From the NCBI GenBank assembly GCA_017508665.1, contig JAFVYL010000040.1, positions 8,309 through 72,308 on the forward strand: a stretch of 64,000 nucleotides of DNA, in the 5' to 3' direction. This document shows positions 6,070-59,045 of the stretch, one piece after another. Source of the DNA: Clostridia bacterium. Lineage in GTDB: Bacteria > Bacillota > Clostridia > Oscillospirales > CAG-272. Positions within the stretch are counted from its first letter, which is position 1, and each line of letters begins with the position of its first letter. Made by a program: the position numbers and the translations under genes. A model generated the notes under the pieces. It did no database searches and had not been told where the DNA came from. It saw nothing but the letters and a program-made list of their open reading frames with translations.

Positions 6070-7269
6070 ATGGATTTTATCAAAGAGAGTGTGATTACTC
6101 CCAGAAAATACGAGTGCGACGTTTGTGTATGCGGTGGCGGTGTTGCGGGTATCGCGGCTGCCATAGCGGCTAAGCGTGCAGGTGCTGAGGAGGTCATACT
6201 GCTTGAGCGCTCCTTTATGCTCGGAGGCCTTGCTACCGCCGGACTTGTAACCATATATCTGGCACTGTGTGACGGATACGGACATCAGATCTGCTACGGA
6301 CTTGCCGAGGAGCTTTTCAAGCTTTCCATTGAATATGGCGCAGAAGCGAGATATCCTACCGCTTGGCTTGATGGCGGAACTGTAGAGGAAAGAGCCAAAC
6401 GTCGATTCGAGGTGCAGTTTAATGCTCAGCTGTTCGCTCTGAGTGCTGAGAGACTTCTGAGACAAGAAGGAATCAAAGTAATGTACGGTGCATCGGCAGT
6501 GGCTACCCATGTGGAGGATAGACGCATAACCGACGTTATAATTGAGGGAAAAGGCGGAAGAGAGGCTATACGCGTAAAGGGTTCTGTAGTTGATACTACG
6601 GGAGATGCCGACGTATGCAAGCTCGCGGGAGCTAAGACTGCCAATTTTGCCGCAGGAAACAAGCTCGCATCCTGGTACTACGGTGTAGCCGAGGGAAAGC
6701 TTGAGCTCTATATGGTCGGAGTACACGATGTGAATGATGACAAGAATGCGACCGATCTTAAGGATGAACGCAGATTTACAGGACTTGATACCGACGAGAT
6801 TTCCGAAATGGTTCAGATCGGACACTCCGCGATGATGAACAATCTGCTTACAAGAAGGGGCGTTACGTCTGATCTCGTTCCGGTTACAATATCCACCATT
6901 CCCGAACTCCGTATGACGAGACGTCTCGCCGGAGCTTACACACAGGATATAGACGAGGTAGACGTCGAATACCCCGATAGCGTGGGAATTTTCCCTAACT
7001 GGAAGAAGATAGGACCTGTCTATGAGCTTCCTTTCTCCGCTCTTTACGGCAAGGAGATAAAAAATCTTGCAGTTGCAGGCAGATGCATCTCGGTTACTGA
7101 CGAGATGTGGGACGTGACGCGAGTAATACCGGTGTGCGCGGTCTCCGGTGAGGCTGCGGGTGCTGCGGCAGCTATGTGCTCTGATTTTGCCAACATTGAT
7201 ATTAAAAAGCTGCAGAGCCATCTTATAAATTGCGGTGTTAAACTGCACAATTATTTAAAGGAGCAATAA
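6070..7269 (+). CDS. FAD-dependent oxidoreductase (FAD_oxidored-type, often linked to glycoside hydrolases)
   Basis: N-terminal dinucleotide-binding motif CDVCVCGGGVAGIAAAIAAKRAG. It is immediately followed by the GH2 gene with a 1-nt gap. Confidence 0.7.
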   Translation: MDFIKESVITPRKYECDVCVCGGGVAGIAAAIAAKRAGAEEVILLERSFMLGGLATAGLVTIYLALCDGYGHQICYGLAEELFKLSIEYGAEARYPTAWLDGGTVEERAKRRFEVQFNAQLFALSAERLLRQEGIKVMYGASAVATHVEDRRITDVIIEGKGGREAIRVKGSVVDTTGDADVCKLAGAKTANFAAGNKLASWYYGVAEGKLELYMVGVHDVNDDKNATDLKDERRFTGLDTDEISEMVQIGHSAMMNNLLTRRGVTSDLVPVTISTIPELRMTRRLAGAYTQDIDEVDVEYPDSVGIFPNWKKIGPVYELPFSALYGKEIKNLAVAGRCISVTDEMWDVTRVIPVCAVSGEAAGAAAAMCSDFANIDIKKLQSHLINCGVKLHNYLKEQ

Positions 7270-7270
7270 A

Positions 7271-9718
7271 ATGAGGAAAATATATTTGCACGACGGATGG
7301 AGCTTTTCAGAGGTGAGTCTCGGTGAGAGATTTGAAGCCAAAGTACCGGGCTGTCTTCATACCGATCTTATGGCGGCCGGAAAGGTCACCGATATATTCT
7401 ACAGAGATAATAACGACAAGTACGGCTGGATAGAGAATCTCTCGCCCGTGTACGAAACTTGTTTTGACGCACCTCTTTCCGATAACGTAAAGCTTAAGTT
7501 TGACGGTCTGGATACCTTTGCTTCGGTGTACCTTAACGGTGTGCATCTTGGTGATACTCACAATATGTTTATTCCGCACACCTTTGACGTCTCGGGTATT
7601 CTTAAAGAGCGTGAGAACACCCTCCGTGTCGAGTTTACTCCGCCTGTAAAGGCTGTTGAGGGTATGCCTGTAGCACCCGGATATGCATTTACCGGTGACA
7701 GAATAAATGCGCGCCGCATACAGTGTACGTACGTCTGGGACTGGGTTGACAGATTCGTCACGATGGGCATATTCCGTCCGGTATATCTTGAGTACAGAGA
7801 GGGTCTTGAGATCGAGGACGTGTACGTCCGTACTGATGCGCTCGACCGCTTTGGCGCGTCGATAGTTGCTGAGTACACTCTCTCGGGATTTGACAAACCC
7901 GGTATAGTTGAGGCAGAGCTCGTATCCCCCTCGGGCAAGGTGGTTTACCGTGACAGATTTTATGCGGATCATCCCCTTGTTGTCAGAAAGATGGACATTC
8001 CCGACCCTGAGCTCTGGTATCCCGCAGGCTACGGCGATCAGCCGCTTTACACTTTTAGAGCACACACGGACACCTCATCCTATGAGACACATCTCGGCAT
8101 AAGAACTATACGCATTATCAATCATAAGGACGAGCCGGGAAGTGAATATTACGATCGCGCTGCCGAAGCGGCAAAATCCGAGGTTGCAGGATGCCGTACC
8201 CGTGATGACGAATACTTCGGCTTCAAGGTAGTTGTAAACGGTACGGAAATATTCTGCAGAGGCGGAAACTGGGTACCGTGTGATCCCTTCCAGTCCGAGG
8301 AGAGCGACGAGAAAATACGCGCTCTTGTAAAGGGCGCACGCGAGATGGGTGCAAATATGCTCCGCGTGTGGGGAGGCGGACTGTTTGAGAAATTCTCATT
8401 CTTCGACGAGTGCGACAGACAGGGTATACTTATCTGCCACGATTTCCTTATGGCGTGCGGTCAGTATCCCGAAAAGGAACAGTGGTTCATTAATGAGCTT
8501 CGTCTTGAGTCTGAGTATGCGGTGAAATTTATGAGAAATCATCCGTGTCTTGCCTGGTTCCACGGTGACAATGAAAACGCGGTTGACGGAAACGATACGG
8601 CGGTAGATTACACCGGCAGAGACAGCGCGCTTGACGGCATATTCCCGAGCGTATATAAGTACTCCAAAAACATCCCCTTGCTCGCATCGAGTCCTTGGGG
8701 CGGAAACGTTTACAATTCCATAACCTCGGGTACTTCTCATAACACCAACTTCATCCCCGAAATCTTTAACTACGTAAATGGCACAGACTGTAACGGCTAC
8801 AAGGAATACTTCGCACAGCTTACCTCACGTTTCGTTGCGGAAGAGCCTACGTTCGGTGCTATCTGCCGTGAGTCAATGCTTGAATTTATGACCGAGGATG
8901 ATCTTCTCGGTGATGACGAGAGCATACTTAAATATCACTGTAAAACAAATCCCGCTCTGCCAAGACACATATACGATGATGTAAGAGCCTTTGCGGAGCA
9001 TATGCTCGGAGAATTCCGTGACGGCGAGGATAGGTACTTTAAGCTGAAGTATATGCAGTGCGAATGGGTTAAGATGACAATGGAGCTATCTCTGCGCAAT
9101 CTCGGATATACAAACGGTACAATATATTGGATGTTCAATGATTGTTGGCCCGCATCTGTCGGATGGGCATTCGTAGATTATTATCTGCGCAGAAAGCCTT
9201 CGTATTATACGTTCAAGCGTCTTGCAAACGACGTTGTAGGCTCGATCGACGTTATCACCGGACACCTTGTCCTCTCAAACACGTCAGGCGAGGCAAAGGC
9301 GGCAGAGCTGACACTTCATCTTCTTGATATGAGTGACGGTATGAGAGAGATAGATACGTTGAAGAGCTCTGTCGGACTTGGCGCGTATTCCTGCGCCGCG
9401 ATAGACGTTTCAGACCGTCTTGGGGAGAACATTCTTGCTGTCGTTGACGTTGACTGCGAGGGTAAAGTTTATCGCTCGCACTACAAGCGAGGTAAGCTTG
9501 AAATCAGACGCGATGACAGATTTACCGTTGTTGCAAGTGATGAAAAATCGATCACAATTCGCGCCGATGCGCATCTTCAGGCTGTGGAGCTCGAAGGAGA
9601 TTACACCTTCTCGGATAACTATTTCTCTATGCTTGACGGGGAGATCAAAACAGTTACTTTTGAAAAGTTCTCAGATAACGCTAAAGGCGTAAGTGTCAAA
9701 GCTTATGTGTTAAAGTAA
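7271..9718 (+). CDS. glycoside hydrolase family 2 protein (beta-mannosidase-like)
   Basis: 815 aa with GH2-like sugar-binding, Ig and TIM-barrel order, including segments MLRVWGGG and FHGDNEN. Confidence 0.7.
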   Translation: MRKIYLHDGWSFSEVSLGERFEAKVPGCLHTDLMAAGKVTDIFYRDNNDKYGWIENLSPVYETCFDAPLSDNVKLKFDGLDTFASVYLNGVHLGDTHNMFIPHTFDVSGILKERENTLRVEFTPPVKAVEGMPVAPGYAFTGDRINARRIQCTYVWDWVDRFVTMGIFRPVYLEYREGLEIEDVYVRTDALDRFGASIVAEYTLSGFDKPGIVEAELVSPSGKVVYRDRFYADHPLVVRKMDIPDPELWYPAGYGDQPLYTFRAHTDTSSYETHLGIRTIRIINHKDEPGSEYYDRAAEAAKSEVAGCRTRDDEYFGFKVVVNGTEIFCRGGNWVPCDPFQSEESDEKIRALVKGAREMGANMLRVWGGGLFEKFSFFDECDRQGILICHDFLMACGQYPEKEQWFINELRLESEYAVKFMRNHPCLAWFHGDNENAVDGNDTAVDYTGRDSALDGIFPSVYKYSKNIPLLASSPWGGNVYNSITSGTSHNTNFIPEIFNYVNGTDCNGYKEYFAQLTSRFVAEEPTFGAICRESMLEFMTEDDLLGDDESILKYHCKTNPALPRHIYDDVRAFAEHMLGEFRDGEDRYFKLKYMQCEWVKMTMELSLRNLGYTNGTIYWMFNDCWPASVGWAFVDYYLRRKPSYYTFKRLANDVVGSIDVITGHLVLSNTSGEAKAAELTLHLLDMSDGMREIDTLKSSVGLGAYSCAAIDVSDRLGENILAVVDVDCEGKVYRSHYKRGKLEIRRDDRFTVVASDEKSITIRADAHLQAVELEGDYTFSDNYFSMLDGEIKTVTFEKFSDNAKGVSVKAYVLK

Positions 9719-36949: not shown

Positions 36950-36978
36950 TTGACAATACGGTGCGTGTAGTGTATAAT
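36950..36978 (+). promoter_or_regulatory. consensus sigma-A promoter of the LRR-protein operon
   Basis: TTGACA, 17 nt, then TATAAT. Confidence 0.6.
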
Positions 36979-37014
36979 AAATCGGTTAAAGAATTTTTTT
37001 TACGGGTATTTATT

Positions 37015-39867
37015 ATGAAGTTGACAAAAAAACAGCTTATTATTACAATAACCGCTGCCGTCCTTGTCTTAGCCGTCCTCACAGTCGCATTGGTATTTAT
37101 CCTCCGGGATAAAGGCGGGGAAAGACAGGTCTTTTACTACGAGGATTTCTCCTACGTTATAAGAGATGACGGTAAGCTTGAGATAATTGGATATTCCGGT
37201 ACCGACAAAGACGTTACCGTTCCAACCTCAATAAACAGTAGATCTGTTTATTCCATAGGAGAAGGGGCATTTCGCGGCAATACTGCCATCTCAACCCTTA
37301 CTCTCGGCGCTATGGTGCGCGAGATCGGGCGCAGCGCCTTTGAGTCCTGCTCCTCTCTTGAGAAGATAACTTGGGGCTCTCTCGTCACCTCGATAGGCCC
37401 TGCCGCATTCCGTGAGTGCCTGACGCTTTCGGCAATCGAGCTGCCCGAGAGCATCACGTCGATAGGCGAGTATGCGTTCTACGGCTGCAGTGCGGTTGAA
37501 AAACTCTCTCTTCCTTCGGCAATCAGGACAATTCCCGATTATGCCTTCTGCGGTTGCTCCAAGCTCGAGTCGTTCGATGCGAGCAATATTGACACCGTTG
37601 GCGCATACGCGTTCAAGAACTGCGCCGCGCTCAAGCTGACCGGTACGGAAAATATAAAGAGCTTCGGTAAATTTGCCTTTGAAAACTGCAAGGCAATCAC
37701 CTCTTTCTCCATAGGAGCGGCAGCTGAAAATATAGGCATCTGTTTTCTCAAGGGTGCATCTAACGTTGCTTCGGTTACTGTAGCCGATGGCAATACCCGT
37801 TATTCCGCATCTACAGGCGCGCTTTACGACCTTGCGGAAAAGAGACTTATGTATTATCCTCCCAAATCCTTGAATAGCTCCTATACATTACCTGCTGATG
37901 CCAAGGTTATCGAGAGCTATGCCTTTGAGGCATGCGGCAATCTTGATATGGTTGTCCTCCCGAGCGGATTGACAAGCATTAACGACTATGCTTTTTCGAA
38001 CTCCTTAGGTCTTGGACGTATCGTTTCGAATACCGCATCCGTGTCAAACTGCGACATTCCCGCATCGGTCACTCATATAGGCGGCAACGCATTTGCGGGT
38101 ACACACTTTAAAAAGTATCTTCCTGCCGGCTTTACCGTAGTAGGTGATAGCATACTTATAAACTATACTCCCGAGAATGATACGGCAGGTAAGTCGGTCG
38201 TTGTTCCTGACGGAGTTAAGAAGATTTCCTCCGCGTTTACCGGCTCGGATAACGTAATAGAGGTTACACTTCCCGCATCTGTTACCGAGCTTTCTTCACA
38301 TACTTTCGCAGGCGCGAGCGGACTTGTCAGAGTAGATATGTCCCGTACGTCTGTAAATCATCTGCCGGATGCTCTCTTTGAGAACACTATGCGACTCACC
38401 GAGGTCATCCTTCCCGATTGCGTACGCACCTCGGGCGCACTCGTTTTCTCGGGCACGCCCGAGCTCAAGTCTATATCCTTGCCGTCCTCCCTTGAGGAAA
38501 TAGGACACAGTATGTTTATGGACAGCGGTCTTACCGCTATTTCGATCCCGAAGAGCGTTAAAGTAATAAGCGCATACGCATTTGCGCGCACAAAGTCGCT
38601 CACCGAGATAAAGATCCCATCAAGCGTTGAGAGCCTTGGCGCTTATGCCTTCGCAGAGTCGGGCCTTGTCGAAATAAAGATACCCAATATTCAGGTCGGT
38701 GATTATCTTCTCTTTAATTGCCAATCCTTGACTAAGGCTAAGTCGAAAATAAAGGGAGAGCTGCCACGCGGTACGTTCATGGGCTGTACGGCACTCACCA
38801 AGGTCAAGCTTCACAGAAAAACTACCTCTATAGGTGATGAGGCGTTTTCCAACTGTACCGCTCTTGAGAAGATAAGAATACCGAGGAGGGTTACCTCGAT
38901 CGGTGACTATGCGTTTGAGAGCTGTACTGCTCTTAAGCGGGTGAAAAGATTTGGCAATCGTTTGCTTGAGATAGGTAATAATGCCTTCTATCTTGACACA
39001 AATCTTAAAAGATTCAGATTTAACAGAAATCTCACGGTAGTCGGTGATGCGGCATTTTACGGATGCGCAAGTCTGAAAAATCCTAATCTTCGACGTGTAG
39101 AAGAGATAGGCGACGGAACATTTGCGGAATGCAAGAACATTACTAAGGTCAAGCTAAAGAATTTAAAATACAACATACCCGCAGGCGCGTTCCGCGGGTG
39201 CACAAGCCTTAAAAAAATCAAGCTCAGCCCGACGGTTGCCGAGATAGGCAATTCGGCATTTGTGAGCTGTATGTCTCTTAAGAAAATTAAGCTTCCGGAC
39301 TCACTTGCTTATATAGGACGTAATGCGTTTGCCGGTTGTGACGGGCTTGAGGAGATAAAGTTTAACGGTCAGCTCAAGAAAATAGATGACTACGCGTTCT
39401 ACCTTTGCGTGTCTCTTGTGAGGGCAGAGCTTCCGGACACGTTAGAGAGCATTGGATCATTCGCCTTCCACGAGTGTGTCAGCCTTGGCAGAGTCGTTAT
39501 GGGAAGCGGTGTCCGCAGCGTTGGCAGCTACGCGTTTGGCAATTGCACAGTGCTTGCCTCTGTAGAGCTTTCTCCCCGTATTACCTCAATAGCCGAGGGC
39601 ACGTTTGCAAATTGCGAAAGCCTCGCTGCTATAAGTATACCGAGCGGAGTAACCGTAATTGAAAAGGGCGCTTTTTCCGCTTGCACGTCGCTTAAGACTC
39701 TGGAGCTTCCGCTCACTCTTCAGACCGTGTATGAGAATGCCTTTGAGGGATGTGGCGCTCTAATTAATCTCGTTTACGGTGCTGATATATCAAATATCTT
39801 TATCGGTGAGGGTAACGATGCGCTCTTGCGCGCAGATGCAAACACTCCCCGTAAGGAGGCGGAATGA
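37015..39867 (+). CDS. BspA-type leucine-rich-repeat surface protein
   Basis: N-terminal TM or signal anchor, then more than 30 units of the LRR_5 pattern (I..IG..AF..C..L..I.LP..V..I). The start is set at MKLTKKQ (37015). Confidence 0.8.
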   Translation: MKLTKKQLIITITAAVLVLAVLTVALVFILRDKGGERQVFYYEDFSYVIRDDGKLEIIGYSGTDKDVTVPTSINSRSVYSIGEGAFRGNTAISTLTLGAMVREIGRSAFESCSSLEKITWGSLVTSIGPAAFRECLTLSAIELPESITSIGEYAFYGCSAVEKLSLPSAIRTIPDYAFCGCSKLESFDASNIDTVGAYAFKNCAALKLTGTENIKSFGKFAFENCKAITSFSIGAAAENIGICFLKGASNVASVTVADGNTRYSASTGALYDLAEKRLMYYPPKSLNSSYTLPADAKVIESYAFEACGNLDMVVLPSGLTSINDYAFSNSLGLGRIVSNTASVSNCDIPASVTHIGGNAFAGTHFKKYLPAGFTVVGDSILINYTPENDTAGKSVVVPDGVKKISSAFTGSDNVIEVTLPASVTELSSHTFAGASGLVRVDMSRTSVNHLPDALFENTMRLTEVILPDCVRTSGALVFSGTPELKSISLPSSLEEIGHSMFMDSGLTAISIPKSVKVISAYAFARTKSLTEIKIPSSVESLGAYAFAESGLVEIKIPNIQVGDYLLFNCQSLTKAKSKIKGELPRGTFMGCTALTKVKLHRKTTSIGDEAFSNCTALEKIRIPRRVTSIGDYAFESCTALKRVKRFGNRLLEIGNNAFYLDTNLKRFRFNRNLTVVGDAAFYGCASLKNPNLRRVEEIGDGTFAECKNITKVKLKNLKYNIPAGAFRGCTSLKKIKLSPTVAEIGNSAFVSCMSLKKIKLPDSLAYIGRNAFAGCDGLEEIKFNGQLKKIDDYAFYLCVSLVRAELPDTLESIGSFAFHECVSLGRVVMGSGVRSVGSYAFGNCTVLASVELSPRITSIAEGTFANCESLAAISIPSGVTVIEKGAFSACTSLKTLELPLTLQTVYENAFEGCGALINLVYGADISNIFIGEGNDALLRADANTPRKEAE

Positions 39868-43809: not shown

Positions 43810-44175
43810 TGGTGGAGCCGACGGGAATTGAACCCGTGTCCAAAGACCAATCCATACAACTTTCTCCGTAGACAGTCAATCTATTAAGCTTCCCACATCG
43901 GAGCGCCGAGTGACAGGCTCACCTCAGGGTAGCGCATTAATGCGTGACCGATACATGCGCGACTCTCGGTTCACGTGCACTACTCATTTGACGCACGGCT
44001 TGGGCCGTAGTCCTCCCAAGCGGTACGGGCGGCATTATTGCCGCATCAGCAGCTTACGCTGCCATAGCAACTTTATTGTTGTCGTTTATTATTTAAGTTT
44101 GGACATTTTGACGCGATTATCCGGCGCGCTACGCTTATCATACTTCACGACCCCTGTCGAAACCATTGCGGCCCC
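43810..44175 (-). ncRNA. ssrA: transfer-messenger RNA (tmRNA)
   Basis: On the minus strand it reads GGGGCCGCAATGGTTTCGACAGGGG...GGGTTCAATTCCCGTCGGCTCCACCA. The internal tag reading frame ends ...AAC AAT AAA GTT GCT ATG GCA GCG TAA (..NNKVAMAA-stop). Confidence 0.93.
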
Positions 44176-45699: not shown

Positions 45700-48600
45700 A
45701 TGAAGATAAAACGATTAGCTTTACTTATGCTCTGCGCGGTAATGATACTTACCTCCGCGGTTATACCCACCGTATTCACCGCAAAGGCCGCAGAGCCGAT
45801 TAACGATTACAACTATTCAAATCCCGCATCCGACCGCAATCTCACTCTCACCGCGGCGGAGTTCCTTACGGACCTCGGATACACTCTGTCAGATGCAGAG
45901 GCCGATTATCTTAACGCTTTTTGCGATTTCAAGCTCCGATATGACCGTGTTTCTCAGGACATGGTGGAAAAGAGAGTTACCGGAGCTGACGGAGAGCCTA
46001 AAAGGGTAGAGATACAGGCGCAATATTATACGTATACGGCCGCTGACGGAAATACCGTTATTACCTGGACTCCTGTAAAGGCGGAGATAGTCATGGGAGA
46101 TACCGTCATCTCTTCCGCAACCTCTTACACAGAAGAGAGCGGCAAGCGTATCTTTACTATCGAGAACATTGACATCGATTTGAGCTATGACTACAGAGTT
46201 CAGTATCAGATATCCGACGGCATTACCGTTTTTGCCAATGACGTTAATTTCTTGCTTGATTATACCTATGATAAGATTACCGAGGCACAGCCTCACCTCG
46301 ACTTTTACAAGAATAACGAGGATGCCGTAAACGCGTATCTCGGATATCTCAAGGATAAGCGCATATGGGATCAGAATAAGGCGGCATATGACGCTTACCC
46401 ACAGCTTCTTGAAAAGTACGGAGAGGATCTCGTTAAGTACAATAAATACCGTGACGTAACTCTTCCCGAATATATGCGCTTATTAAGCGAATATAATACG
46501 GAGCTTAACAATTATAACCAAGAACTCAAGCTATACAACGAATATCTTGCTAAGCTTGATACGATGAAGGCTCAGATAGATACCTTTGATACCGCGTTGA
46601 CAAAGAAGATGACCTACCTCGACCGCGAGGTGTACGCATGCTTCTTCGCATCGCTCGTTGACGAGGTCGTGGCAAACAAGGAAAAGCTTATTGCAGGCTT
46701 TGGTGAAAAGATGAGAGGTCCTATAGACAACTCCAAGGCCGCCACGGAGAATATCCGCAAGATATTCAGACCGTCCGACGGAACTCACTATGATAAGCTC
46801 GAGTCGATCGATGACAAGTACACCTTCTATATAAACAACTACGAGGCACTTTGTGCCAACATATACCTTCTTACTGAGTCGCTCTATACGATCTACACCA
46901 CTAACGGTATGGTACAGCTGATGCATACGGCATCCTCAATGATGGACAGAGAGGACTACACCGAGAGACTTGCTATCTTTATTGCTCAGCTTGTAGGAAT
47001 TTGTGACGTCCTCAGTGACACACCCCTGACTTACACAAGCGGACAGGGCAAGGAGCACAGTGCTGCAAATATGTCCTTCAACTACAGAACAAAGGCCGGT
47101 GCGGACGTAAAGAACAGGACTATATCACAGATCTTTGAGGGAGAGGAGTTCGTCAAGGATACGAACAACGCGACTCCTATCGCGCCTCCGGCAAAGGTAG
47201 ATCCCCCGACACCTATGACCTCCGTTCCTCCTGTGGAGCCTGAGGAGATCATAGAGCCCACTAAGCCGGTACAGCCCGCAGATCCCGGAAATCCTCCGAC
47301 TGAGGTCTTTAAGCCCGACGGTATGCCCGAGGGCGGCTTCGATTGGACGAAATTTATCAGCGATACCTCATATCATACTCTTATGCAGACACTTCTTGCC
47401 GAGAAGCTTGGCGGCGTGCTTACTGACAGAGATGATGTTTCGGATATCAATTATGTACCCACCTATAACGTGCAGAAGCCTTTTGATGACTCATCCTACG
47501 TTAAGATCGGTCTTCATGATGCAAACAGAGAGCTTATTGACAGGATAGAGATTAAAAAGGGAAGCGACGTTGATTTCAGAGCGCTCGGATATTCAAATCC
47601 CGTGAAGGCGGAGGATATCGGTGCGACCTATACCTTCATCGGTTGGGAAAGCTCTGACGGTCAGCCCTTTGATTATTCCGCAACCCGCGACGTCGATCTG
47701 TATCCCGTTTTTGAAGTCAATCACAAGGATAATTATGAGATAGACGGAAAAAAACTCGTTGCCACCACCGACGCTGATCTCGTACGTCTGCCCATAGCAA
47801 AATTTACCGATATCGTTGACAGTGAACGCCTTGAGGGGCTCAAGGCGATGGCTAAGGACGTAGGTATTGAGATCAAGTACGAGAGCTTGCTTGAACTTCG
47901 TGCGGCAGGTGTCGATTACCTTGTTGTCAGAGCAGATTCCTCAAATGCTGCTTCTCCCGTGTGTCAGGTTCTTGCATATACCGACGGCGGCAATAGGGTA
48001 GAGATCTCATCTCCTATCACCGTTTACCTCGCCTTTGCCGATCTGAAGTCCGACGTCACCTACACCGATTTGAATAACGAGAGCAATAAGGCAGGAACCG
48101 AAAGCATTAAGCTGAGCGGCGATGCCGAGAGCAATACTAACTATATATACTTCCAAACCGCACTTAATAAGAGCGACACGCTTTCCGTAAAATACGATAT
48201 CAGCTGCATCTCGTCTGTTCAAGCTCCTACTACGGCAGCACCCGGTGAGACTGTCAGCATTGATATTACCGATATCCTTGGTATGAGGGCAGAGGCATAT
48301 TACATGCATAACGGAGTGAAGTATGCTATAAGCGGCAAGAGCTTTGTTATGCCCGAGGGCAGTGTTCAGCTCGGCGTAAGCTATACCGATATCATATGCA
48401 CGGTTACCTTCATAAGCAACGGCAAGGAAATAAAGAAGGATTCCTATAAGTGGGGAAGTCCGCTTGATAAATGGCCGAGCAATCCCACTAAAGCAAACGA
48501 CAGTGAGTACAGCTATAAGTTTAAAAGATGGTCTCCTTTAAGAGAGGACTTTGTATATGAAGACCTCGTTTATATTGCTATCTTTGAGCGCACCCCTCTT

Positions 48601-48867
48601 CCTAAAGAGCCCATCAAGATAAATTGGCTGAGAGTACTCGTAGTTACCGCAATGGTACTCGTAGTTACCGGACTTGTTGCTCTTGTGCTTCTGATACTTC
48701 ATAAGACAAAGGTTATCAACGTCAAGAAGATAATCCCCGCTATATGCAGTATCTTTAAGAAAAGGGGAGATAAAGGCACGGACGTTATAGCTGACAGCAC
48801 TGAGGTGCAGCCCCCCGAAGAATGCGATAAAACTCCGAAGTCTGACGAGGCGGATCCCGAAAAATAA
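45700..48867 (+). CDS. large type-I membrane-anchored surface protein (1055 aa)
   Basis: Signal peptide, N/Y/K-rich helical region, Pro-rich linker, a Listeria-Bacteroides (InlB B-type) repeat (TYTFIGWESSDGQPFDY), a C-terminal TM helix and a short charged tail. Confidence 0.6.
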   Translation: MKIKRLALLMLCAVMILTSAVIPTVFTAKAAEPINDYNYSNPASDRNLTLTAAEFLTDLGYTLSDAEADYLNAFCDFKLRYDRVSQDMVEKRVTGADGEPKRVEIQAQYYTYTAADGNTVITWTPVKAEIVMGDTVISSATSYTEESGKRIFTIENIDIDLSYDYRVQYQISDGITVFANDVNFLLDYTYDKITEAQPHLDFYKNNEDAVNAYLGYLKDKRIWDQNKAAYDAYPQLLEKYGEDLVKYNKYRDVTLPEYMRLLSEYNTELNNYNQELKLYNEYLAKLDTMKAQIDTFDTALTKKMTYLDREVYACFFASLVDEVVANKEKLIAGFGEKMRGPIDNSKAATENIRKIFRPSDGTHYDKLESIDDKYTFYINNYEALCANIYLLTESLYTIYTTNGMVQLMHTASSMMDREDYTERLAIFIAQLVGICDVLSDTPLTYTSGQGKEHSAANMSFNYRTKAGADVKNRTISQIFEGEEFVKDTNNATPIAPPAKVDPPTPMTSVPPVEPEEIIEPTKPVQPADPGNPPTEVFKPDGMPEGGFDWTKFISDTSYHTLMQTLLAEKLGGVLTDRDDVSDINYVPTYNVQKPFDDSSYVKIGLHDANRELIDRIEIKKGSDVDFRALGYSNPVKAEDIGATYTFIGWESSDGQPFDYSATRDVDLYPVFEVNHKDNYEIDGKKLVATTDADLVRLPIAKFTDIVDSERLEGLKAMAKDVGIEIKYESLLELRAAGVDYLVVRADSSNAASPVCQVLAYTDGGNRVEISSPITVYLAFADLKSDVTYTDLNNESNKAGTESIKLSGDAESNTNYIYFQTALNKSDTLSVKYDISCISSVQAPTTAAPGETVSIDITDILGMRAEAYYMHNGVKYAISGKSFVMPEGSVQLGVSYTDIICTVTFISNGKEIKKDSYKWGSPLDKWPSNPTKANDSEYSYKFKRWSPLREDFVYEDLVYIAIFERTPLPKEPIKINWLRVLVVTAMVLVVTGLVALVLLILHKTKVINVKKIIPAICSIFKKRGDKGTDVIADSTEVQPPEECDKTPKSDEADPEK

Positions 48868-49063: not shown

Positions 49064-49092
49064 TTGACAAAGCTTACACGGGGTGCTATAAT
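49064..49092 (+). promoter_or_regulatory. consensus sigma-A promoter of the giant-protein gene
   Basis: TTGACA, 17 nt, then TGcTATAAT. Confidence 0.6.
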
Positions 49093-49160: not shown

Positions 49161-52100
49161 ATGAAAAAGACGTTAGTTTCAGTTTTGACTTTGTTGCTTG
49201 TTTCTGTGATGCTCTTTACAGGCTTCGTTCCTGTAATCAGCCATGCAGCAACCAAGGCGTCTGTTAAGGACGAGATAGCAGCAGTCATTCCGGACAGTGT
49301 CACAAGCACCAATTGGGTTGACTTGGAGCTTGAAGGCGATCAGTTTATTCTGACCGTTAATCCCGACCTCAGCGTTCTTCAGGACGTTGATAAGGATCAG
49401 CTCAAGGCTCTTCTTGCTAAGGCTCTTGAGTACTTCAAGGATAAGGTTAAGACCGCTTGGGACAACAAGACAATTCTCAAGGAACACCTTTGGGATCTTG
49501 CTCTTGAGATCTATAGCGACGTTAAGGGCCACGGCAGCATTACCGCGACACTTACCGATCCTAATCTCCCCTACGAGCTTGCGCACTATGCAAAGCTTCT
49601 TCTCATCGCTGCCAATGCGGCAGAGATCATCAGCATCGAGGAGCTTAAGAATTATGCAGTGGCTGCTAAGGAAGCATTCCCTGTATATGCAAAGGCTCTT
49701 GTTGAGAAGTACGGCCCCGCAGTAAATGCAAAGGTTACCGAACTTGTTAACCAGATTGCAGGTACCGACTTTGAGAACGTTCAGGATATGGTTAGCACCG
49801 CTAAGAATATGCTCAACCAGTTCAAGAATGCGATACTCGAGCTTGAGAAGTACGGCCTCAATCCTGCAGATTTCGTTACATATCTTCAGAATCCCGGCAG
49901 CGCTTCCGCGACTATCGCAGAGCAGATAAAGGCGGAGCTTGAAAGCAAGGCTGATGCGATCGTTGATACTCTTGCTGCAGACAAGTCCAATGCAGAAGCA
50001 GTAGCTGATCAGCTTGCCGCTCTTCTTGCAGAGTACGGCGTTGTTCTTACCGATGAGCAGGTTAATAATGTTGCTACAGCTCTTGCAAACGGTGAGCCTA
50101 TTGATTTTACAGGCCTTGATATCGATGCTTTCATAGCAGATAAGCAGGCTGAGTTCGAGAGCCTTCTCAACATCAGCGACACCAAGCTTAAGCTCCTTGG
50201 TATCGCAAAGAAGATTCTTAACAAGGTTATGACCGATGAGGAGATCATCGAGCTCGTAAAGAGCGAGAACGTTGTTGCCGCTGTTAAGGATAAGATCGTT
50301 GAGATCGTATCCGGCATCGATAAGTCCGATATAGTTAACTATGCAACCAAGATCATTAACGCTATTGAGACCGTTAAGATCAACAACTCCGTTATCTTCC
50401 ACAAGACAGAAAACGGTCCTCAGGTAAACTTAGCAGGTATCAAGGAGCTCCTTCTCTCCGTTCCCGGCTTCGGTAAGATCTCCGAGATGGGTGACGATGA
50501 GATGTCCTTCCCTGTAAGATTTGCTATTGATACCATCTACACAAATGAGATCGACTTCGGTATCACTCTCAGAATTAATCCCGAGAGCGCTAAGTACGTA
50601 AGAGCAGCTGCAGAGCTCCTTACCAGATACTTCAACCTCGATTTCACCAACGGCACCGTAGTCTTCGAGATGAAGATGCCCGAGATATTCACTAAGGCAA
50701 TTCTTAAGGCTGCTAACTCCAGCGTTATCGATCCCGCGCTTAAGCAGAAGGTATTCGCTGCGTTCTCAGCAACCGGCAACGATGTTTACGCACTTATTCA
50801 GAGCCTCTCCTATGATGATATGATCGCTCTTATCAACTGCGTAGACTTCGGTGCAATATTCGATCACGACTTCGTAAAGAAGTTTGTAGACCTTTCCGCG
50901 TATGATAATGAGGATATCATCAACGTAGTAGAGAAGTACAGATCCTACTTCGAGGCTGCTATTAAGTACGGTATCAAGCTTGCTACAGCGATCAAGAACA
51001 GAATCCCCTCAAGATTTATGGACGATTCCTTCCTTGACATCGTTGACAACCACAGCACCATTTCTTATGACTCCGGTAAGTTTGGCTATAAGGCAACTCA
51101 TACCATTACCGTAGATCATATTGATACAGTTCTCGGTAAGATCGCAGATCTTCTCGGCATCAACAGGGATGCAGTATCCTTTGTTCTTTACAAGTTCCTT
51201 CCCGATAGCTTCGTTTCCGATGGCTTCACCGTAGGACTTGATTTCAGCGTTCAGTTCAAGAACATCTACCGTATCAACTATGTTGATGCAAACGGTAATG
51301 CTATCAAGAGCGGCTTCCTTCCCGTTGGCGCTAAGCTTAACGATTTCGTTAACGTTGCAGACGTTACCGGTTGGAAGGATGAGAACGGTATTGTTCTTAC
51401 CACCATGCCCGACAGAGACGTAACTGTAAGCCCTGTATTCGTTGAACAGATTGATCATACCATAGACCTTTCCAGAATTACCTGGGTTGATGATCACTTC
51501 GTAGAGGGCGCACTCCTTGAGCGTCTTTACACAGGTAATAATTACGAGATCACTCTTTACGTACCCAGTGAGTATGAGGGACTTATTAAGGTGACTCCCG
51601 CAGGCAACGTTGCTAAGGATGCCGGTAATTACACCGCGACCTACACCTATGAGCTTCTCGGTTCCAATATCAAGGTAGTTGGTACTCCCGCAGAGTACGC
51701 TTGGACTATTGCTCCCAAGACACTTACTGCTGCTGACGTTGCAGGCTACGCTTGGAACAATCCTACCTACACCGGTGCTCCCCTCACAGGTACTATCGTT
51801 CTTCCCAATAGCCTCGAGGTTGTAAAATATGAGTTCCCCAACAACTGTGTAAACGCAGGTGAATACACCGCAACCGTTACCATCGCTTCTGTACAGAACG
51901 CTAACGGCGCCTACAACTACAACTTCATCTCCGGCAACGTAGTTTCTTACGAGGGCACCTTTGAGAATCTCACTTGGAGAATTGAGAAGGCTGATATCTC
52001 CGATCTCAGAACTCTCGTTCAGCTTGTAGGCAAGACTGTTAACTACGACAGCAAGAAGAATCAGAAGCTTGAGGTTAGCCTTACCAACACTGCACTCAAC

Positions 52101-54233
52101 GATGAGTACAACCGTTATGCTGACCTTCTTAAGTATCTCAATGTTTCCTACTTCTATGACGGTATTGCTAACAATCTCGGTGTAAACCTTGTAAAAACAT
52201 ACAGAGTTACCGCAAGCGTTGAGCTTGTTAACCATCCTAACTTCAATGACGCATCTCTTGATCAGCTCGGTCCTGTAAACTTTGTTATCACAGGTGACAA
52301 GGTAAGCGAGTTCCAGCTTGCAGGCGGTACCGTTATTGTAGAGGCAGTCGGCGGCCTTACTCCCGACCACACTCTTAACGTTAAGAAGGCTACTCACGTT
52401 AAGCCTACTTATGAGATCGATAAGAAGAACGCAGTAGTTATTATCTCTTATGACATCTTCTTCACCAAGGGTCTTCAGAAGATTCCCGCAAACGTTGATG
52501 GCAGAGAGTTCATCGTTAAGATCCTTATTCCCGAAAGCCAGCGCGAAATAGGTCGCAGAGATCAGTTCCAGGTTATCCACGTAAACGAGGATGGCACTTT
52601 CGAGATCATGAACGCTACTCGCGAAGGCAATTACATGGTATTCACTACCGACCACTTCTCCGAGTACGCTATAGTACGCGTTGAGGCTAAGAGCCTTGCT
52701 TGGCTCTGGATACTCCTCTTCGCTATACTTGCAGGCGGTATCGCAGTAGGCGTATACTTCTTCACTAAGAACCGTAAGGAAACTGCAGAGGCACTTGCAG
52801 CTGAGGCAACTGAGGAAACTCCCGCAGAGGAAACTCCCGCAGAGGAAACTCCCGCAGAGGAAACTCCCGCAGAAGAAACACCTGCTGAGGAAGCACCTGC
52901 TGAAGAAGCTCCTGTAGAGGAAGCACCTGCAGAGGAAACACCTGTTGAGGAAGCACCCGTAGAGGAAGCTCCTGTAGCAGAAGAGCCTCAGACCGCAGTT
53001 CTTGTTATGGGTCAGGACGGCAAGGAAGCTACCGCGGTTATCGGCGGTGAGACCGTTCACATCAGATTCAGAAGCTCCTTCCTCTCCAGACTTATCCAGT
53101 CCAGCGAGAATATTCAGGACTTCTACTCCACAATTAAGAACTATATTCTTTCCTTCAAGGGCATCAAGGCGAGAAGCAGCTGGAACTATGAGGCCTTCAA
53201 TAAGGGCAGAGTACAGCTTGTTAAGCTTAACATCAAGGGTAAGACTCTCGTTGTTAACCTCAACCTCGATCCTAAGGAATTCAACGTTAATAAGTATCAC
53301 TTCGTAGATTGCTCCGACAAGCCTAAGTTCGCTAAGGTTCCTATGATGATGAAGGTAAGAAGTGCAAGAGCACTTAAGTACACTCTTGAACTCATCGATG
53401 AGATGATGAAGAAGTATGAGCTTAAGCAGCTTGAGATTCCTACCGTTGATTACCGTATGCCTTACGAGACCACCGAGGAGCTTGCTAAGCGCGGTATCGT
53501 TAAGGTCATTCTTCCCGCAGGCGTAACCCTCAGTGATGATATGACATTCGTACACGTTAACGTAAGCGAGCTTATCGAGTCCGGCACGACTGTAAAGACT
53601 ACTGAACAGGTTGTAACCGGAGAGACTCCCGTAGTTGATGAAACTCCCGTAGTTGAAGAAACTCCCGTAGTTGAAGAGACTCCCGTAGTTGAAGAGACTC
53701 CCGTAGTTGAAGAGACTCCTGTAGTTGAAGAGACTCCCGTAGTTGAAGAGACTCCTGTAGTTGAAGAAGCTCCCGTAGTTGAAGAGACTCCTGTAGTTGA
53801 AGAAGCTCCCGTAGTTGAAGAGACTCCCGTAGTTGAAGAGACTCCCGTAGTTGAAGAAGCTCCCGTAGTCGCAGCTCCTGTAGTTGAGGTACTCGAGGAC
53901 GGTACAGTTCATGCAGATGCAGACTCAGCTGACCAGCTCGTTTCCGACGAGGAAGCAGAAGCTCAGCTTGAGGTTTCTGCAGAGGGCGTGAGCCGCAGCG
54001 GTAAGATGGGCGAGGTTAACCTCGACGTCATCTGTGAAAACTTCGATGACGGTGACGTTGTCGATGTAGACTCCCTTAAGGCAAAGCGCCTTGTGTCCGC
54101 TAAGATCGGCAGAGTAAAGATCCTTGCTCGCGGTGTTATGACCAAGAAGCTTACCGTAAAGGCAAGCAAGTTCTCCCTTCAGGCTGTAAAGATGATCACT
54201 CTTGCAGGCGGTAAGGCAGAGCTTGAGGAGTAA
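49161..54233 (+). CDS. giant single-pass membrane protein (1690 aa): about 1175-aa ectodomain, TM helix, acidic-repeat cytoplasmic region and a C-terminal uL15-like domain
   Basis: Signal peptide. TM helix [23 protein letters not shown] near aa 1180. ETPAE and ETPVVE repeats. The last about 74 aa align by eye with the ribosomal protein L15 C-terminus. Confidence 0.7.
52812..52976 (+). repeat. eleven 15-bp in-frame tandem repeats (E-T/A-P-A/V-E)
   Basis: GAGGAAACTCCCGCA units follow directly after the TM helix. Confidence 0.9.
53622..53888 (+). repeat. about fifteen 18-bp in-frame tandem repeats (E-T/A-P-V-V-E)
   Basis: GAGACTCCCGTAGTTGAA units with synonymous and T/A variation. Confidence 0.9.
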
Positions 54234-54264
54234 TAAAAATACTCAAAGCTAACGCTTGAAAAAA

Positions 54265-54303
54265 GGCGCGAGTGTCCTTCGGGACATTCGCGCCTCATTT
54301 TTT
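54265..54303 (+). terminator. intrinsic terminator
   Basis: GGCGCGAGTGTCC-ttcg-GGACATTCGCGCC stem followed by a T-run. Confidence 0.85.
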
Positions 54304-54476
54304 CCTGTTATTTGACCGACAAAAAAGAGAGAACATTTCGGTTTTCCGATTTGTTCTCTCTTTATGTTTTATAAGGGGACTTAGCCCGTTGACACTTGAT
54401 CACTCATGCGCGGTGCTCTTGCGCTTTTGTTAAAGTATAATTTTCCGTTTAGGATATCATACATTTTAGGGCAATC

Positions 54477-54986
54477 TTATTTTAAGATCTTAGCATCACT
54501 CATGGCATAATACAAAACAGTTCCGCCTATAACACCGCAGACGAGCTCTCCTATACCTACCGAGAGCGACAGAGCGAAGAAGCCTGCCTCCACACCGTAT
54601 GCGTACATAAGTACGAAGGGCACGATGATCATGTTTGAGAAGAGATTAGGCAGAGTGGTCATCCACTTGAGCTTTTTTGGCAGATTTCTCAAAGCATATG
54701 CGCCGAGCGCACCTATCAGAGTGGCGATGCTTCCGAAAATAATATCCCAAAGCACGCAGCCCGCAATTATGTTTGAGAGTATGCAACCGATAAACAGACC
54801 TGCGATTGCTTCAGGCATAAACAGCGGCAGGATACATAGAACCTCCGCTATGCGGAACTGTATAGCTCCGCTTGATAGACCGAATACGGTCGACACGTAG
54901 CACAAACCTACGTAAAGGGCAGCAATAAGTGCTCCGCGTGTCAGCGCACGGGTAGAACCCGTGATTCTTTTGACGTTCCTTTTCAT
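54477..54986 (-). CDS. queT: queuosine-precursor transporter QueT
   Basis: 169-aa, 5-TM protein with a TRALTRGALIAALYVGLCYV N-terminus typical of QueT (COG4708). Confidence 0.75.
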   Translation of the reverse strand: MKRNVKRITGSTRALTRGALIAALYVGLCYVSTVFGLSSGAIQFRIAEVLCILPLFMPEAIAGLFIGCILSNIIAGCVLWDIIFGSIATLIGALGAYALRNLPKKLKWMTTLPNLFSNMIIVPFVLMYAYGVEAGFFALSLSVGIGELVCGVIGGTVLYYAMSDAKILK

Positions 54987-55235: not shown

Positions 55236-55817
55236 TTGAAGTTTTTAAATATAAGTGATATAAAGTTAAAGGTAACACTTAGCCCGGAAGATTGTCGGGA
55301 TTACGGCATAGACACCGCTAAGGGTGAGATTTCCACACGCGAGGTCAGACGTGCGGTGCGCGTGATAATAGAGAGAGCGCGTGAGGAGTGCGGCTTTTCA
55401 GTAGGCTCTGACAGGATATTGGTGCAGACGTATCCTTTGCCGAGCGGAGAGTGTGAGCTCCTCATCACAAGACTTAGCGCTGTGCCGCACAGAGAACGCG
55501 CTGTCCTGACGTCCTCTGACGGTATGTCGACGATGGAGCATAGGAGAGGGGTATACCGCTTCTCATCTATTGACGATCTGCGCTCGGCAGTCAGAGCCGC
55601 ATACCGTGAAGATGCGGAGTGCGACCTTTACCTCGATGACCTTGGCAGATATTATCTGCATGTCAGCGAGCACGTCACCGACGGACTCTCCGAGTTTGAG
55701 ATATTCATAGAGTATGGCGAGCGCCTTGCCGCTCTTCCTATAGCCGTCCTCTCGGAATACGGTACTCACCTCGCAGGCCCCCACGCCTTTGAATATGTTA
55801 TGCATGATGAAATATAA
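55236..55817 (+). CDS. MecA-like adaptor protein
   Basis: The N-terminus MKFLNISDIKLKVTLSPEDCRDYGID resembles the MecA N-domain. TTG start, 193 aa. Confidence 0.45.
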   Translation: MKFLNISDIKLKVTLSPEDCRDYGIDTAKGEISTREVRRAVRVIIERAREECGFSVGSDRILVQTYPLPSGECELLITRLSAVPHRERAVLTSSDGMSTMEHRRGVYRFSSIDDLRSAVRAAYREDAECDLYLDDLGRYYLHVSEHVTDGLSEFEIFIEYGERLAALPIAVLSEYGTHLAGPHAFEYVMHDEI

Positions 55818-56309: not shown

Positions 56310-59045
56310 TTATTCGGGAAGAATGGGATAGATATAATTCTCAAGGTAGTAAAGACGGTCTGCCTTAACACCAACAACGGCCGCATACTGAGCTCTCATA
56401 TCAGTAAGGCTGAAGTTAGCATTCTTGATCATAGTATGCCACTTATCCTGCTCGGAGTTACCGCCGGTCTGAGCCTTGTAGAACTCACCGAGTGCGTCCT
56501 CGAACGTCTTATCGAAATTAGAACGGACGTTGTAACGGATGTACTGAAGCATCTCTACGTTACCTACTGTGTCAAGCACCTGAGGGGTAGCCTTGAGCTT
56601 GTAATCGTAGTACTCGATAAGTACCTTGTTAGAATTGGTGGACTGATAGTTGAGGTAAGCTGTGCACTGTGCAAACTTCCGAGTAGAGAATGCGATAGCA
56701 CCGATCTTACCGTTGTTATGGATCTGAGTGAGGTAATCGTCGCCGCCCTCGGAGTGATAAAGCGGAACGGGAGCGATACCGTAACCCTTCTTACCTGCGC
56801 CCTTCATGCCGAGGTAATCCTCATGCTCAAGAGCACCAAGCAGGGTAACGCCGCCGAAGAGGATCTTACCGTTCGCAAAGTTATGGCGGATAGCCTCGGT
56901 GTCGTTAGCAAAGCCTGCGGCACGAGCCTCGTTAGTGCTTACGGTGATAACACCGTTAGTGTTAACAAGTTCGGAAAGGTTCTTACAGAATACGTCGAGC
57001 TGCTCGAAGGTAGCATATTCGCCATTATCGTTGAACTCGAACTGACCGGGAGCTACTTCCTTGGTGTTGGGGTAGTTGTAGGTGTACTCAATGGTATCGA
57101 AAGTTCTGTTAACGATAGTGATAGAGGTGCTGTAAAGCATACCGGATGCGGGAAGACCTGAACCGGTACCGAGTGCAAAGCCAACTCTGTCTGCGATAGT
57201 GATGTTAGCGTCGCCGCCCTGCTCTTGAACAATAGCCTCGGAGAAGGCAGCGAGAGTCTCGTAGGTCCAATTCATGTTCCATACGAGATCATAGAAATCG
57301 ATGATGTCGTACTTGCCGTTCTCGTTAGAGTCGTAGTTGAACTCACCCTCAACGTTGGAGGGAGTGATCATCTCAAGAAGCTCAATGTTAACGGGAACTA
57401 CCATCGATGCCCGTATTGCGTCGATAAAGTAGTCGGAAGAAAGGCAATACATCTTCCACTTGGAAAGGGTGAGAGATCTCATGTACTCGTACATGTAGTC
57501 TACACCGGTATCCTCGTAGGTTCTGTCATCCTCGAATGCGAAGTAGTTGTACTCAGTGCCTGCATACTGATGGCCATCCTCATACATAGTGGTGGAGTAG
57601 AGGTTAGCAAAGTTACCTCTGAGAGAGGAAGCTACCATATCGTATACGAAGCTGATGAATACGTCGGGAGTCTCAGGGTCACCGCTCTTTACAAGCTCAT
57701 CGATGAAATAGATGCTCTGGCTCCAACCATAGCTTGCACCGTCGGGAAGGTACAGATACTTAGCCTTAACGTTGGTAACATTTTCCGCGTCAGCGTTTCT
57801 GTCTGCTACGTAGTCATCTACGTGAGCCTGATCATCCTCATAACCGGAAAGGTCACCTGCGAGATATCTTCTGGAAGTAGAAGGAAGCTGAGAAGAGTTA
57901 GAGTCCTCGTTTATGCAGATGGTAATGTCTGTCTTGCTCCAAGGATATGGACTGTCTGACGATATCCACATAGCATAGAAAGTGTGTGAAGAGAAGAAGT
58001 CGATCGAATTTAAAGCGGATGAATAATCGGTATACCAACCGGCAAAAATATAGCCTTCCTTAGTGGGGTCGCTGAGCTGTATCGGATATCTATCTCCGCT
58101 ATATATTACAGTCGGATTATTGTACGAGTTTGTACCACCGTCAAGCTCATATCTGACGGGCGCACTCCATCTTCCTACAAGGGAGATGTCATCGGTTATA
58201 GGCGTGTTGAAGTCCCATTTTGTGTTACCGTTATACCATCCCTCAAACGTCCATCCTGATACTGAAGGGGGTATCGGCTCGGATATTGTAGTTCCGGTGA
58301 CCACCGACGTTCTGAATACAAAGTCTGCGGTCTGGCATACAACTTCATGCACCTTTACCCAGCTTGCGGTCAAGTCGAGACTTGAGGTTACAGGGGCGTT
58401 GAAGTCCCATTTTGTGCCGTTGTTATACCAACCGTCAAAAGCGTAGCCGCTTTTACTCGGCTCTTCGGGTTCTGTTATTTTATCTCCGTACTGTGCGTTC
58501 TGGGAGCTTAGCAAGACTCCGTTTTCATTGACGAACCTTATCGTATAGGTCAGTGAATTCCATCTGGCGGTAAGCGTGATATCTTCGGTGACCGAGTATC
58601 CGATAAAGGACCAAGCCTCATCACCTACATACCAACCGATGAAGATTGAGCCATCCTTGTTAGGATCTGCAGGCTTTTGAATTTTACCTCCGTGCTCAAC
58701 CGCTTGGGTGGAGATTAGTGTACCGTCTTCGTCAACGAAATTGACGTTGTATGTCAATACGTTCCATTTTGCCTTAAGAGTTATACTCTCGGTTACGGTA
58801 GAGCTGAAGTCCCACTTTGAGTCTTCGAGATACCAGCCGGCGAATACATAGCCGTCTTTAGTGGGATCCTCAGGCTCGACAATAGGTTCATCTTTTGATA
58901 CGCGTTGCTCTGCAATTTTACTGCCGCCATCTGTATCAAAGGTAATTGTGAACGTGTCATCGGTGAAACGACCAAAATAGTCGCATGAAACAAATGTAAA
59001 GCAAAGCAGTACCAATGCTAAAGCAATAAGCAAATACTTTTTCAT
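56310..59045 (-). CDS. lipoprotein with five InlB-B/Listeria-Bacteroides repeats and a large uncharacterised C-terminal domain (911 aa)
   Basis: Lipobox FVSC. Five about 65-aa units with a ...P.K.GY.F.GWY......WDF... pattern. The C-terminal about 550 aa is unassigned and may be solute-binding-like. Confidence 0.6.
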   Translation of the reverse strand: MKKYLLIALALVLLCFTFVSCDYFGRFTDDTFTITFDTDGGSKIAEQRVSKDEPIVEPEDPTKDGYVFAGWYLEDSKWDFSSTVTESITLKAKWNVLTYNVNFVDEDGTLISTQAVEHGGKIQKPADPNKDGSIFIGWYVGDEAWSFIGYSVTEDITLTARWNSLTYTIRFVNENGVLLSSQNAQYGDKITEPEEPSKSGYAFDGWYNNGTKWDFNAPVTSSLDLTASWVKVHEVVCQTADFVFRTSVVTGTTISEPIPPSVSGWTFEGWYNGNTKWDFNTPITDDISLVGRWSAPVRYELDGGTNSYNNPTVIYSGDRYPIQLSDPTKEGYIFAGWYTDYSSALNSIDFFSSHTFYAMWISSDSPYPWSKTDITICINEDSNSSQLPSTSRRYLAGDLSGYEDDQAHVDDYVADRNADAENVTNVKAKYLYLPDGASYGWSQSIYFIDELVKSGDPETPDVFISFVYDMVASSLRGNFANLYSTTMYEDGHQYAGTEYNYFAFEDDRTYEDTGVDYMYEYMRSLTLSKWKMYCLSSDYFIDAIRASMVVPVNIELLEMITPSNVEGEFNYDSNENGKYDIIDFYDLVWNMNWTYETLAAFSEAIVQEQGGDANITIADRVGFALGTGSGLPASGMLYSTSITIVNRTFDTIEYTYNYPNTKEVAPGQFEFNDNGEYATFEQLDVFCKNLSELVNTNGVITVSTNEARAAGFANDTEAIRHNFANGKILFGGVTLLGALEHEDYLGMKGAGKKGYGIAPVPLYHSEGGDDYLTQIHNNGKIGAIAFSTRKFAQCTAYLNYQSTNSNKVLIEYYDYKLKATPQVLDTVGNVEMLQYIRYNVRSNFDKTFEDALGEFYKAQTGGNSEQDKWHTMIKNANFSLTDMRAQYAAVVGVKADRLYYLENYIYPILPE

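Follow-up and report, generated by a model that had tools for sequence, protein, structure and literature searches.

Membrane elements that bind ribosomes are known from several systems, among them the basic C-terminal tails of YidC/Oxa1, mitochondrial Mba1/mL45 and p180 of the endoplasmic reticulum, and domains of ribosomal proteins are known to have been recruited into non-ribosomal proteins. The bacterial ribosomal protein uL15 (RplO) is a stand-alone protein of ~145 amino acids (aa). Its gene, rplO, belongs to the spc operon, where it lies next to secY, and a 2024 review on what bacterial ribosomal proteins do outside the ribosome mentions uL15 only as a member of that operon (PMC10931766). 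Our literature search found nothing on a membrane-anchored uL15 paralogue or on a fusion family named “uL15 family ribosomal protein”. Here we analyze such a fusion, encoded in a 64-kb stretch of contig JAFVYL010000040.1 of a Clostridia bacterium (the whole stretch is called the window below). An uninterrupted reading frame at 49161..54233 on the plus strand, the strand of all features of this gene given below, encodes a membrane protein of 1690 aa that ends in a homologue of the globular C-terminal domain of uL15.

The original prediction, made by eye, had assigned the last ~74 residues to this domain. Positions 54009-54233 translate exactly to the peptide that was listed then, followed by the stop codon, and the assignment holds in searches by sequence and by fold. 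The Pfam model PF00828 (Ribosomal_L27A) matches residues 1618-1687 over its full length (model positions 1-72 of 72) with 54-60 bits, the gathering cut-off being 21.5 bits (E-values of 2e-14 with the whole protein and 3.9e-16 with the 74-aa piece). A phmmer search of PDB sequences retrieved 28-31 uL15 chains, each aligned only over residues ~74-145; these include E. faecalis 6o8w_M (E 2.7e-9) and B. subtilis 3j3v_L, whose phmmer alignment reproduces the one to B. subtilis L15 given in the original prediction. In an AlphaFold2 model built from 116 family sequences the domain is predicted with a local confidence (pLDDT) of ~96, and the top Foldseek matches in the PDB are uL15 chains only (E 2e-5, 34-38% identity). 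The domain (residues 1615-1690; 54003..54233 with the stop codon) lies at the extreme C-terminus of the protein, its homology ending 1-2 residues ahead of the stop codon. It is homologous to uL15 over the entire globular C-terminal domain, has the same predicted fold, keeps the core motifs and shows 34-38% identity to the uL15 of Listeria and Enterococcus. The match is real and is not explicable by chance.

The protein differs from RplO in several respects. The NCBIfam model TIGR01071 (rplO_bact) is matched only at positions 72-143 of 144 and with 45-50 bits, below its equivalog cut-off of 77.95 bits, and the ~70-residue Gly/Arg-rich, rRNA-penetrating N-terminal extension of uL15 (TIGR01071 positions ~1-71) is missing. 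There is no spc-operon context at the gene, and a canonical rplO is absent from the window. Of four features that define a true RplO, the protein thus lacks three, namely the extension, a score over the full length and the operon context. Since the N-terminal extension is missing, we regard the domain as a paralogue and not as the uL15 of the cell; a membrane-bound copy with neither the extension nor the spc-operon context cannot be the uL15 of the ribosome itself.

Alignment of 80 paralogue domains, taken from the family described below, with Firmicute uL15 shows what was kept and what was altered. Positions conserved in at least 80% of the paralogues are largely those shared with uL15, in the motifs NLD, F.DG, K.L..G, K.L and A..FS..A...I..GG. 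Two changes relative to uL15 are fixed in the family: the G-x-G loop has become A-R-G, and the AKEAIEAAGG of the last helix has become AVKMI.LaGG. Both paralogue signatures, KILARG and an AVKMI.L.GG-type motif, are present in the 1690-aa protein. The net charge of the domain is +4 here and +2.9 on average in the family, versus -1 to 0 in the aligned Firmicute uL15 C-terminal domains. As far as an alignment can tell, this pattern would fit either rRNA binding that persisted in altered form or an interface that is new in part.

The gene product is a type-I membrane protein. Hydropathy scanning revealed a signal peptide at residues 1-29 (49161..49247; MKK, a hydrophobic core and SHA/A, the cleavage site being placed by an AxA-like motif) and one transmembrane (TM) helix at residues 1179-1202 (52695..52766), which is the sole other hydrophobic helix and is followed by a basic stop-transfer sequence, KNRK. 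Between them lies the ectodomain (residues 30-1178; 49248..52694), which matches no family significantly in Pfam, NCBIfam, PADLOC or PHROGs. The cytoplasmic tail of 488 aa begins with acidic linker 1 (residues ~1207-1280; 52767..53039), which has a counted net charge of -25 and contains a PAEET-type tandem repeat (15-nucleotide (nt) unit, 10.9 copies, 52812-52974). It is followed by a basic module of ~165 aa with a net charge of +11, delimited by a family hidden Markov model (HMM) and by AlphaFold2 (residues 1294-1456 in the HMM match; 53040..53528). Acidic linker 2 (residues ~1457-1582; 53529..53906), with a net charge of about -40 and an ETPVVE tandem repeat (18-nt unit, 13.8 copies, 53621-53869), is disordered in the AlphaFold2 model. 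A short conserved acidic helical motif (residues 1583-1605; 53907..53975) then leads to the uL15-like domain; it was found in the family alignment, its helices are modelled with pLDDT 87-94, and it precedes the uL15-like domain in the aligned family members, including those that have no module. The signal peptide, the single TM helix and the two acidic repeat tracts had all been listed in the original prediction. The ectodomain measures ~1150 aa, and the conserved-looking module of about 200 aa in that prediction is a real domain.

The signal peptide, the single TM helix and the KNRK sequence together predict an N-out, C-in orientation that would place the uL15-like tail in the cytoplasm. The family as a whole agrees with this. 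Among 179 members, the 15 residues that follow the last TM helix before the module contain on average 2.79 Lys and Arg, versus 0.73 in the residues that precede it; the positive-inside bias points inward in 132 of the 179 and outward in 18 (Wilcoxon p=1e-20). Because of the signal peptide, the single TM helix and this family-wide bias, the predicted position of the tail on the inner face of the membrane stands.

A search with the module and the C-terminal domain retrieved 118 relatives with the same layout (TM helix, basic stop-transfer sequence, acidic linker, module, acidic linker and uL15-like end), which NCBI names either “uL15 family ribosomal protein” or “hypothetical protein”; the exact 1690-aa protein was not found in a collection of 15 billion proteins. 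Scanning one genome per GTDB species with two paralogue-specific motifs, K[VI]LARG... and AVKMIxLxGG, yielded at least 538 confirmed loci with a paralogue-type uL15 domain in species-representative genomes. Almost all hosts are uncultured gut Clostridia/Eubacteriales of ruminants, chickens and humans; one is a “Bacilli” metagenome-assembled genome, and a few relatives occur in Erysipelotrichaceae and Bacilli. Thus, the fusion that had been flagged as unexpected on a giant surface protein is genuine but not singular, and about half of its carriers have next to no ectodomain.

Details were obtained for 80 of the loci, each with 6-kb flanks on both sides. Wherever the open reading frame (ORF) is complete, the uL15-like domain is located at the C-terminus or at most ~15 residues from it, and one to three copies of the module and one TM helix are found ahead of it. 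The size of the extracellular part is bimodal, with fewer than 60 residues before the TM helix in 77 of 179 members and more than 500 in 70. Giant forms of 1600-2600 aa predominate among the closest relatives of the 1690-aa protein. We considered and discarded the idea that the giant form is an exception: a first homologue search had returned only proteins of up to 520 aa, and the genome scan together with the search of cluster representatives shows that lengths of 1600-6300 aa are common.

Module and C-terminal domain are 83-88% identical to those of the closest orthologues, with a ratio of nonsynonymous to synonymous substitution rates (dN/dS) of 0.10-0.21, and are under purifying selection. 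The ectodomain is homologous to the ectodomains of giant relatives, shares 31-35% identity with the closest of them and diverges much faster. Therefore, the cytoplasmic tail is the conserved functional unit and the ectodomain a variable add-on. The proteins form a large uncharacterised family of gut Clostridia whose members keep the tail but freely swap, or lack, the part outside the cell. In the closest orthologue, L007, whose tail is 87% identical, the gene is split into two overlapping ORFs (1603-6969 and 6836-7324); the break falls in the repeat tract between the module and the uL15-like domain and reflects a genuine frameshift or else a mistake in sequencing or assembly.

The family HMM of the module, which was built from 18 sequences with the 1690-aa protein among them, matches residues 1294-1456 with a domain E-value of 2e-74, and the stretch ordered in the AlphaFold2 model from 116 sequences comprises residues 1281-1450 (pLDDT 95-98). 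The module alone reaches well beyond proteins with a uL15-like end. A module-only profile retrieved 3570 representatives of 50%-identity clusters (3244 of them at E<=1e-10), which carry one to seven copies and are up to 6312 aa long. Among the best 150 of these, 57 have a uL15-like end, and in all 57 it is C-terminal. Other ends in the same set are DUF2357 (E 2e-8 to 6e-8), short basic tails and two small unnamed domains, so that the C-terminal position looks like a slot for exchangeable “hooks”. Such alternative ends are carried by P0147, P0177, P0138, P0179, P0212, P0119, P0189 and P0194; the short basic tails are of the type ...LFKRRK, and the small unnamed ends are a ~70-aa “VVGVMFRRRGRKVYWFDPDGK” domain and a ~100-aa basic helical “PYTREEY.AL.RK.KK” domain. 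The converse case is P0269, in which a uL15-like end, preceded by the acidic helical motif, follows ~840 aa of acidic cytoplasmic repeats with no module.

No Pfam match to the module was found at E<=5 in any of 18 members scanned (18/18), membership in PF04237, PF08818 and PF18899 included, and its profile found no PDB sequence at E<=10; NCBIfam and PHROGs likewise gave no significant match to the module. Modelled by itself with AlphaFold2, the module is an alpha/beta sandwich (pLDDT 86, predicted TM-score (pTM) 0.79). Its best Foldseek neighbour in the PDB is YjbR (2fki; prob 0.99, TMt 0.60, E 0.07), followed by the YdhG-like/DUF1801 structures 9t2w and 2oc6 and by the COG5646 structure 2i8d, with marginal E-values throughout (0.07-0.6). 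Among viral models (BFVD) a phage DUF5655 protein ranks first (E 1.5e-3, prob 1.0, root-mean-square deviation 3.2 A over 111 columns). YjbR, YdhG and DUF5655 domains are CyaY/frataxin-like alpha/beta sandwiches with a DNA-binding motif of the “double-wing” type. The module, predicted with high confidence as a sandwich, would resemble MmcQ/YjbR, YdhG (DUF1801) and DUF5655 weakly in fold, and it has a basic charge (+11 here, +7 on average in the family) like that of a nucleic-acid binder. It differs from them in being longer, since it has additional strands at its N-terminus and a helix-strand element at its C-terminus, and in matching no Pfam or PDB sequence profile; DNA binding by the module is putative. 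The similarity of the modelled fold to this group is thus a weak lead and would not amount to membership. An earlier guess, made by eye, that the module is DUF5655-like found no support in sequence profiles and weak to moderate support at the level of fold.

By sequence, the module matches both PADLOC models of PDC-S18, a candidate phage-defence protein. The match covers the C-terminal third only (~105 positions; 195-301 of 302 in one model and 207-330 of 365 in the other; E 7e-11 and 1e-9), and the N-terminal ~190 positions of these models are absent from the 1690-aa protein. The module is a new, widespread, basic “double-wing-like” domain that at present has no Pfam model.

What might such a tail do? 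The reading that we place first, and hold only as a tentative one, is that the protein is a membrane-anchored tether whose uL15-like tip keeps the 50S subunit, a late precursor of it (pre-50S) or 23S rRNA on the cytoplasmic side of the membrane. The TM helix would anchor the protein, the two long polyanionic linkers would act as flexible spacers repelled by membrane and nucleic acid alike, and the basic module or modules together with the terminal uL15-like domain would bind structured nucleic acid. For the terminal domain the most plausible ligand would be the one inherited from uL15, that is, 23S rRNA in a 50S or late pre-50S particle, and the outcome would be that large subunits, their precursors or rRNA are held at the inner membrane face. 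The alternation of charge along the tail (-25 and -40 in the linkers versus +11 in the module and +4 in the uL15-like domain) and the disorder of the linkers in the AlphaFold2 model are in line with a tether, as is the module-less P0269, whose uL15-like end follows ~840 acidic residues. A nucleic-acid theme recurs in the YjbR-, YdhG/DUF1801- and DUF5655-like fold matches, in the DUF2357 ends of other members and in the PDC-S18 match.

If this tether exists, it would resemble YidC/Oxa1, Mba1/mL45 and p180 in being anchored in the membrane and in contacting the large subunit with its cytoplasmic (or matrix) part. Those proteins are not ribosomal-protein paralogues and act at the tunnel exit in co-translational insertion; in the Clostridia family the putative hook is a copy of uL15 on a long acidic leash. 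A stronger statement, that in hundreds of species of gut Clostridia the large subunit or its late precursors have a membrane receptor of their own, made of a duplicated uL15 globular domain on a polyanionic leash and often placed beneath fast-evolving giant surface proteins, seems to us unlikely in this full form.

Several observations speak against a ribosome tether. Part of the ribosome binding of uL15 comes from the N-terminal extension, which the paralogue lacks, and uL15 itself already occupies the site on the mature 50S subunit. The substitutions in the last helix (AVKMI.L) and in the ARG loop could mark a new interface. The fold similarity of the module is weak (PDB E 0.07-0.6), with no profile link to YjbR, DUF1801 or DUF5655. 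Finally, the flanks of the 80 loci give no ribosome-related signal beyond an adjacency to genes for transfer-messenger RNA (tmRNA) and RNase R that is restricted to particular lineages.

An alternative, also named in the original prediction, is a recycled fold, in which ribosome binding was lost and the domain became an end-piece for a protein or another ligand, for example, for docking a partner or for oligomerisation of the tails. We consider this rather doubtful, while noting that it accounts for the loss of the extension, for fixed changes (ARG and AVKMI.L) through which the last helix has gained hydrophobicity and basic charge relative to uL15, and for the conserved acidic helix that always stands ahead of the domain and may pack on it; the review cited above, moreover, gives uL15 no role beyond its place in the spc operon (PMC10931766). 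It sits less well with the fact that the positions most conserved in the paralogue are exactly those shared with uL15. The net basic charge of the domain (+2.9 compared with -1 to 0 in Firmicute uL15 C-terminal domains) and its association with other putative nucleic-acid-binding modules likewise count against this reading.

The nucleic acid bound could also be DNA. DUF2357, which follows the modules in related proteins, accompanies restriction-type nucleases, and this, together with the homology of the module to the C-terminal part of PDC-S18 (E 7e-11) and its YjbR/DUF5655-like predicted fold, might point to a nucleoid tether or a defence-type sensor. Here the double-wing-like modules would bind the chromosome or incoming phage or plasmid DNA, the ectodomain would be exposed to phages, as its divergence, far faster than that of the tail, might indicate, and the uL15-like end would be an accessory clamp. 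However, the window and the related loci are housekeeping neighbourhoods and not defence islands, the 1690-aa protein contains no nuclease or other effector, and about half of the family has no ectodomain with which to sense anything. PDC-S18 itself is no more than a candidate system, and our literature search found nothing on it. On balance, this explanation appears unlikely, and clearly more so than a recycled fold.

Less probable still is transmembrane signalling, in which the ectodomain would sense an event at the surface and regulated proteolysis would free the tail to act on ribosomes or nucleic acid. A single-pass protein with a large variable part outside and conserved domains resembling nucleic-acid binders inside has a suitable build, and proteases could cut in the long, disordered linkers next to the membrane. 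The idea derives from this architecture alone, however; in 77 of 179 members the part outside the membrane is shorter than 60 residues, and no site-1 or site-2 protease or other partner is conserved near the 80 loci. An artefact, that is, an assembly or frameshift error that joined rplO to a surface-protein gene, or a gene that is the sole uL15 of the organism, can be set aside as effectively refuted: the NCBI names of some relatives and the split of the L007 orthologue in its repeat tract might hint at it, but at least 538 independent loci and assemblies show the same architecture, the frame is unbroken and flanked by a promoter-like site and a terminator-like hairpin of its own, only rplO model positions 72-143 are present with a score under the equivalog cut-off, there is no spc-operon context, and dN/dS is ~0.1-0.2.

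Returning to the ribosome tether, if the tail binds 50S or rRNA, bacteria would have a mechanism not described before by which ribosomes are positioned or sequestered at the membrane, and the uL15-like domain, being small and well-folding, would offer a testable handle on it; a true receptor would be an unrecognised way to localise, sequester or quality-control ribosomes there. Should the tail bind something else, the family would show clearly how a domain of a universal ribosomal protein can be neofunctionalised. The family is large, under purifying selection and concentrated in abundant uncultured gut Clostridia.

The gene itself has a σ70-type promoter-like site (TTGACA, 17 nt, TATAAT, with an extended TG; 12 of 12 consensus positions) at 49064..49092, identified by pattern match alone and located ~70 nt 5′ of the start codon. 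A pattern match at 54264..54305, which begins 30 nt past the stop codon, corresponds to an intrinsic-terminator-like hairpin, whose 14-bp stem contains 9 G-C pairs and which a T run follows. These two matches suggest that the gene may be transcribed separately. Two long antisense ORFs lie within it on the minus strand (51009-53912, 967 aa, and 49179-50402, 407 aa); their translations are low-complexity and repeat-derived and bear no sign of being genes.

The gene directly upstream, at 45700..48867 on the plus strand, encodes a surface protein of 1055 aa that starts with a signal peptide and has a TM helix near its C-terminus and a short charged tail. Homologues of it occupy the same upstream position at 20 of the 80 related loci, which suggests that this gene and the giant forms make up a conserved pair. 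Downstream in the window are QueT (54477-54986, minus strand) and then a MecA-like gene. The latter, at 55236-55817 on the plus strand, is a 193-aa ORF with a TTG start that matches the N-terminal part of the ClpC adaptor MecA (E 1.5e-14, best stretch at model positions 1-82 of 221); it could represent a MecA paralogue that is shortened or has diverged. At 50 of the 80 loci a predicted two-TM protein of ~200 aa that belongs to no Pfam family is encoded directly downstream, in either orientation (among loci L002-L051, L056, L071, L074 and L075; for example, L003 7392-7997 and L015 7124-7735); it is absent from the window. MetY/MetA-like, serine hydroxymethyltransferase, ABC-transporter and similar neighbours of the 80 loci reflect lineage synteny.

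A tmRNA gene with the tag peptide DNNKVAMAA is located at 43810-44175 on the minus strand, 5 kb upstream of the 1690-aa gene. At L032, a tmRNA gene (4418-4782) lies ~280 nt upstream of the family member and divergent from it, and RNase R (RNB, CSD2 and S1 domains) is the divergent upstream neighbour at eight loci of another subclade (L063, L065, L066, L072, L073, L076, L078 and L080). This adjacency may be lineage synteny with a trans-translation locus; a functional link to trans-translation was considered and dropped, as the adjacency did not generalise to the rest of the 80 loci. Large proteins that are secreted or anchored are also unusually frequent in the window: other surface-type products of this kind are a 968-aa BspA-type LRR_5 protein (36961-39867, plus strand; E 4e-187) and a 911-aa protein with Listeria-Bacteroides repeats (Flg_new; 56310-59045, minus strand).

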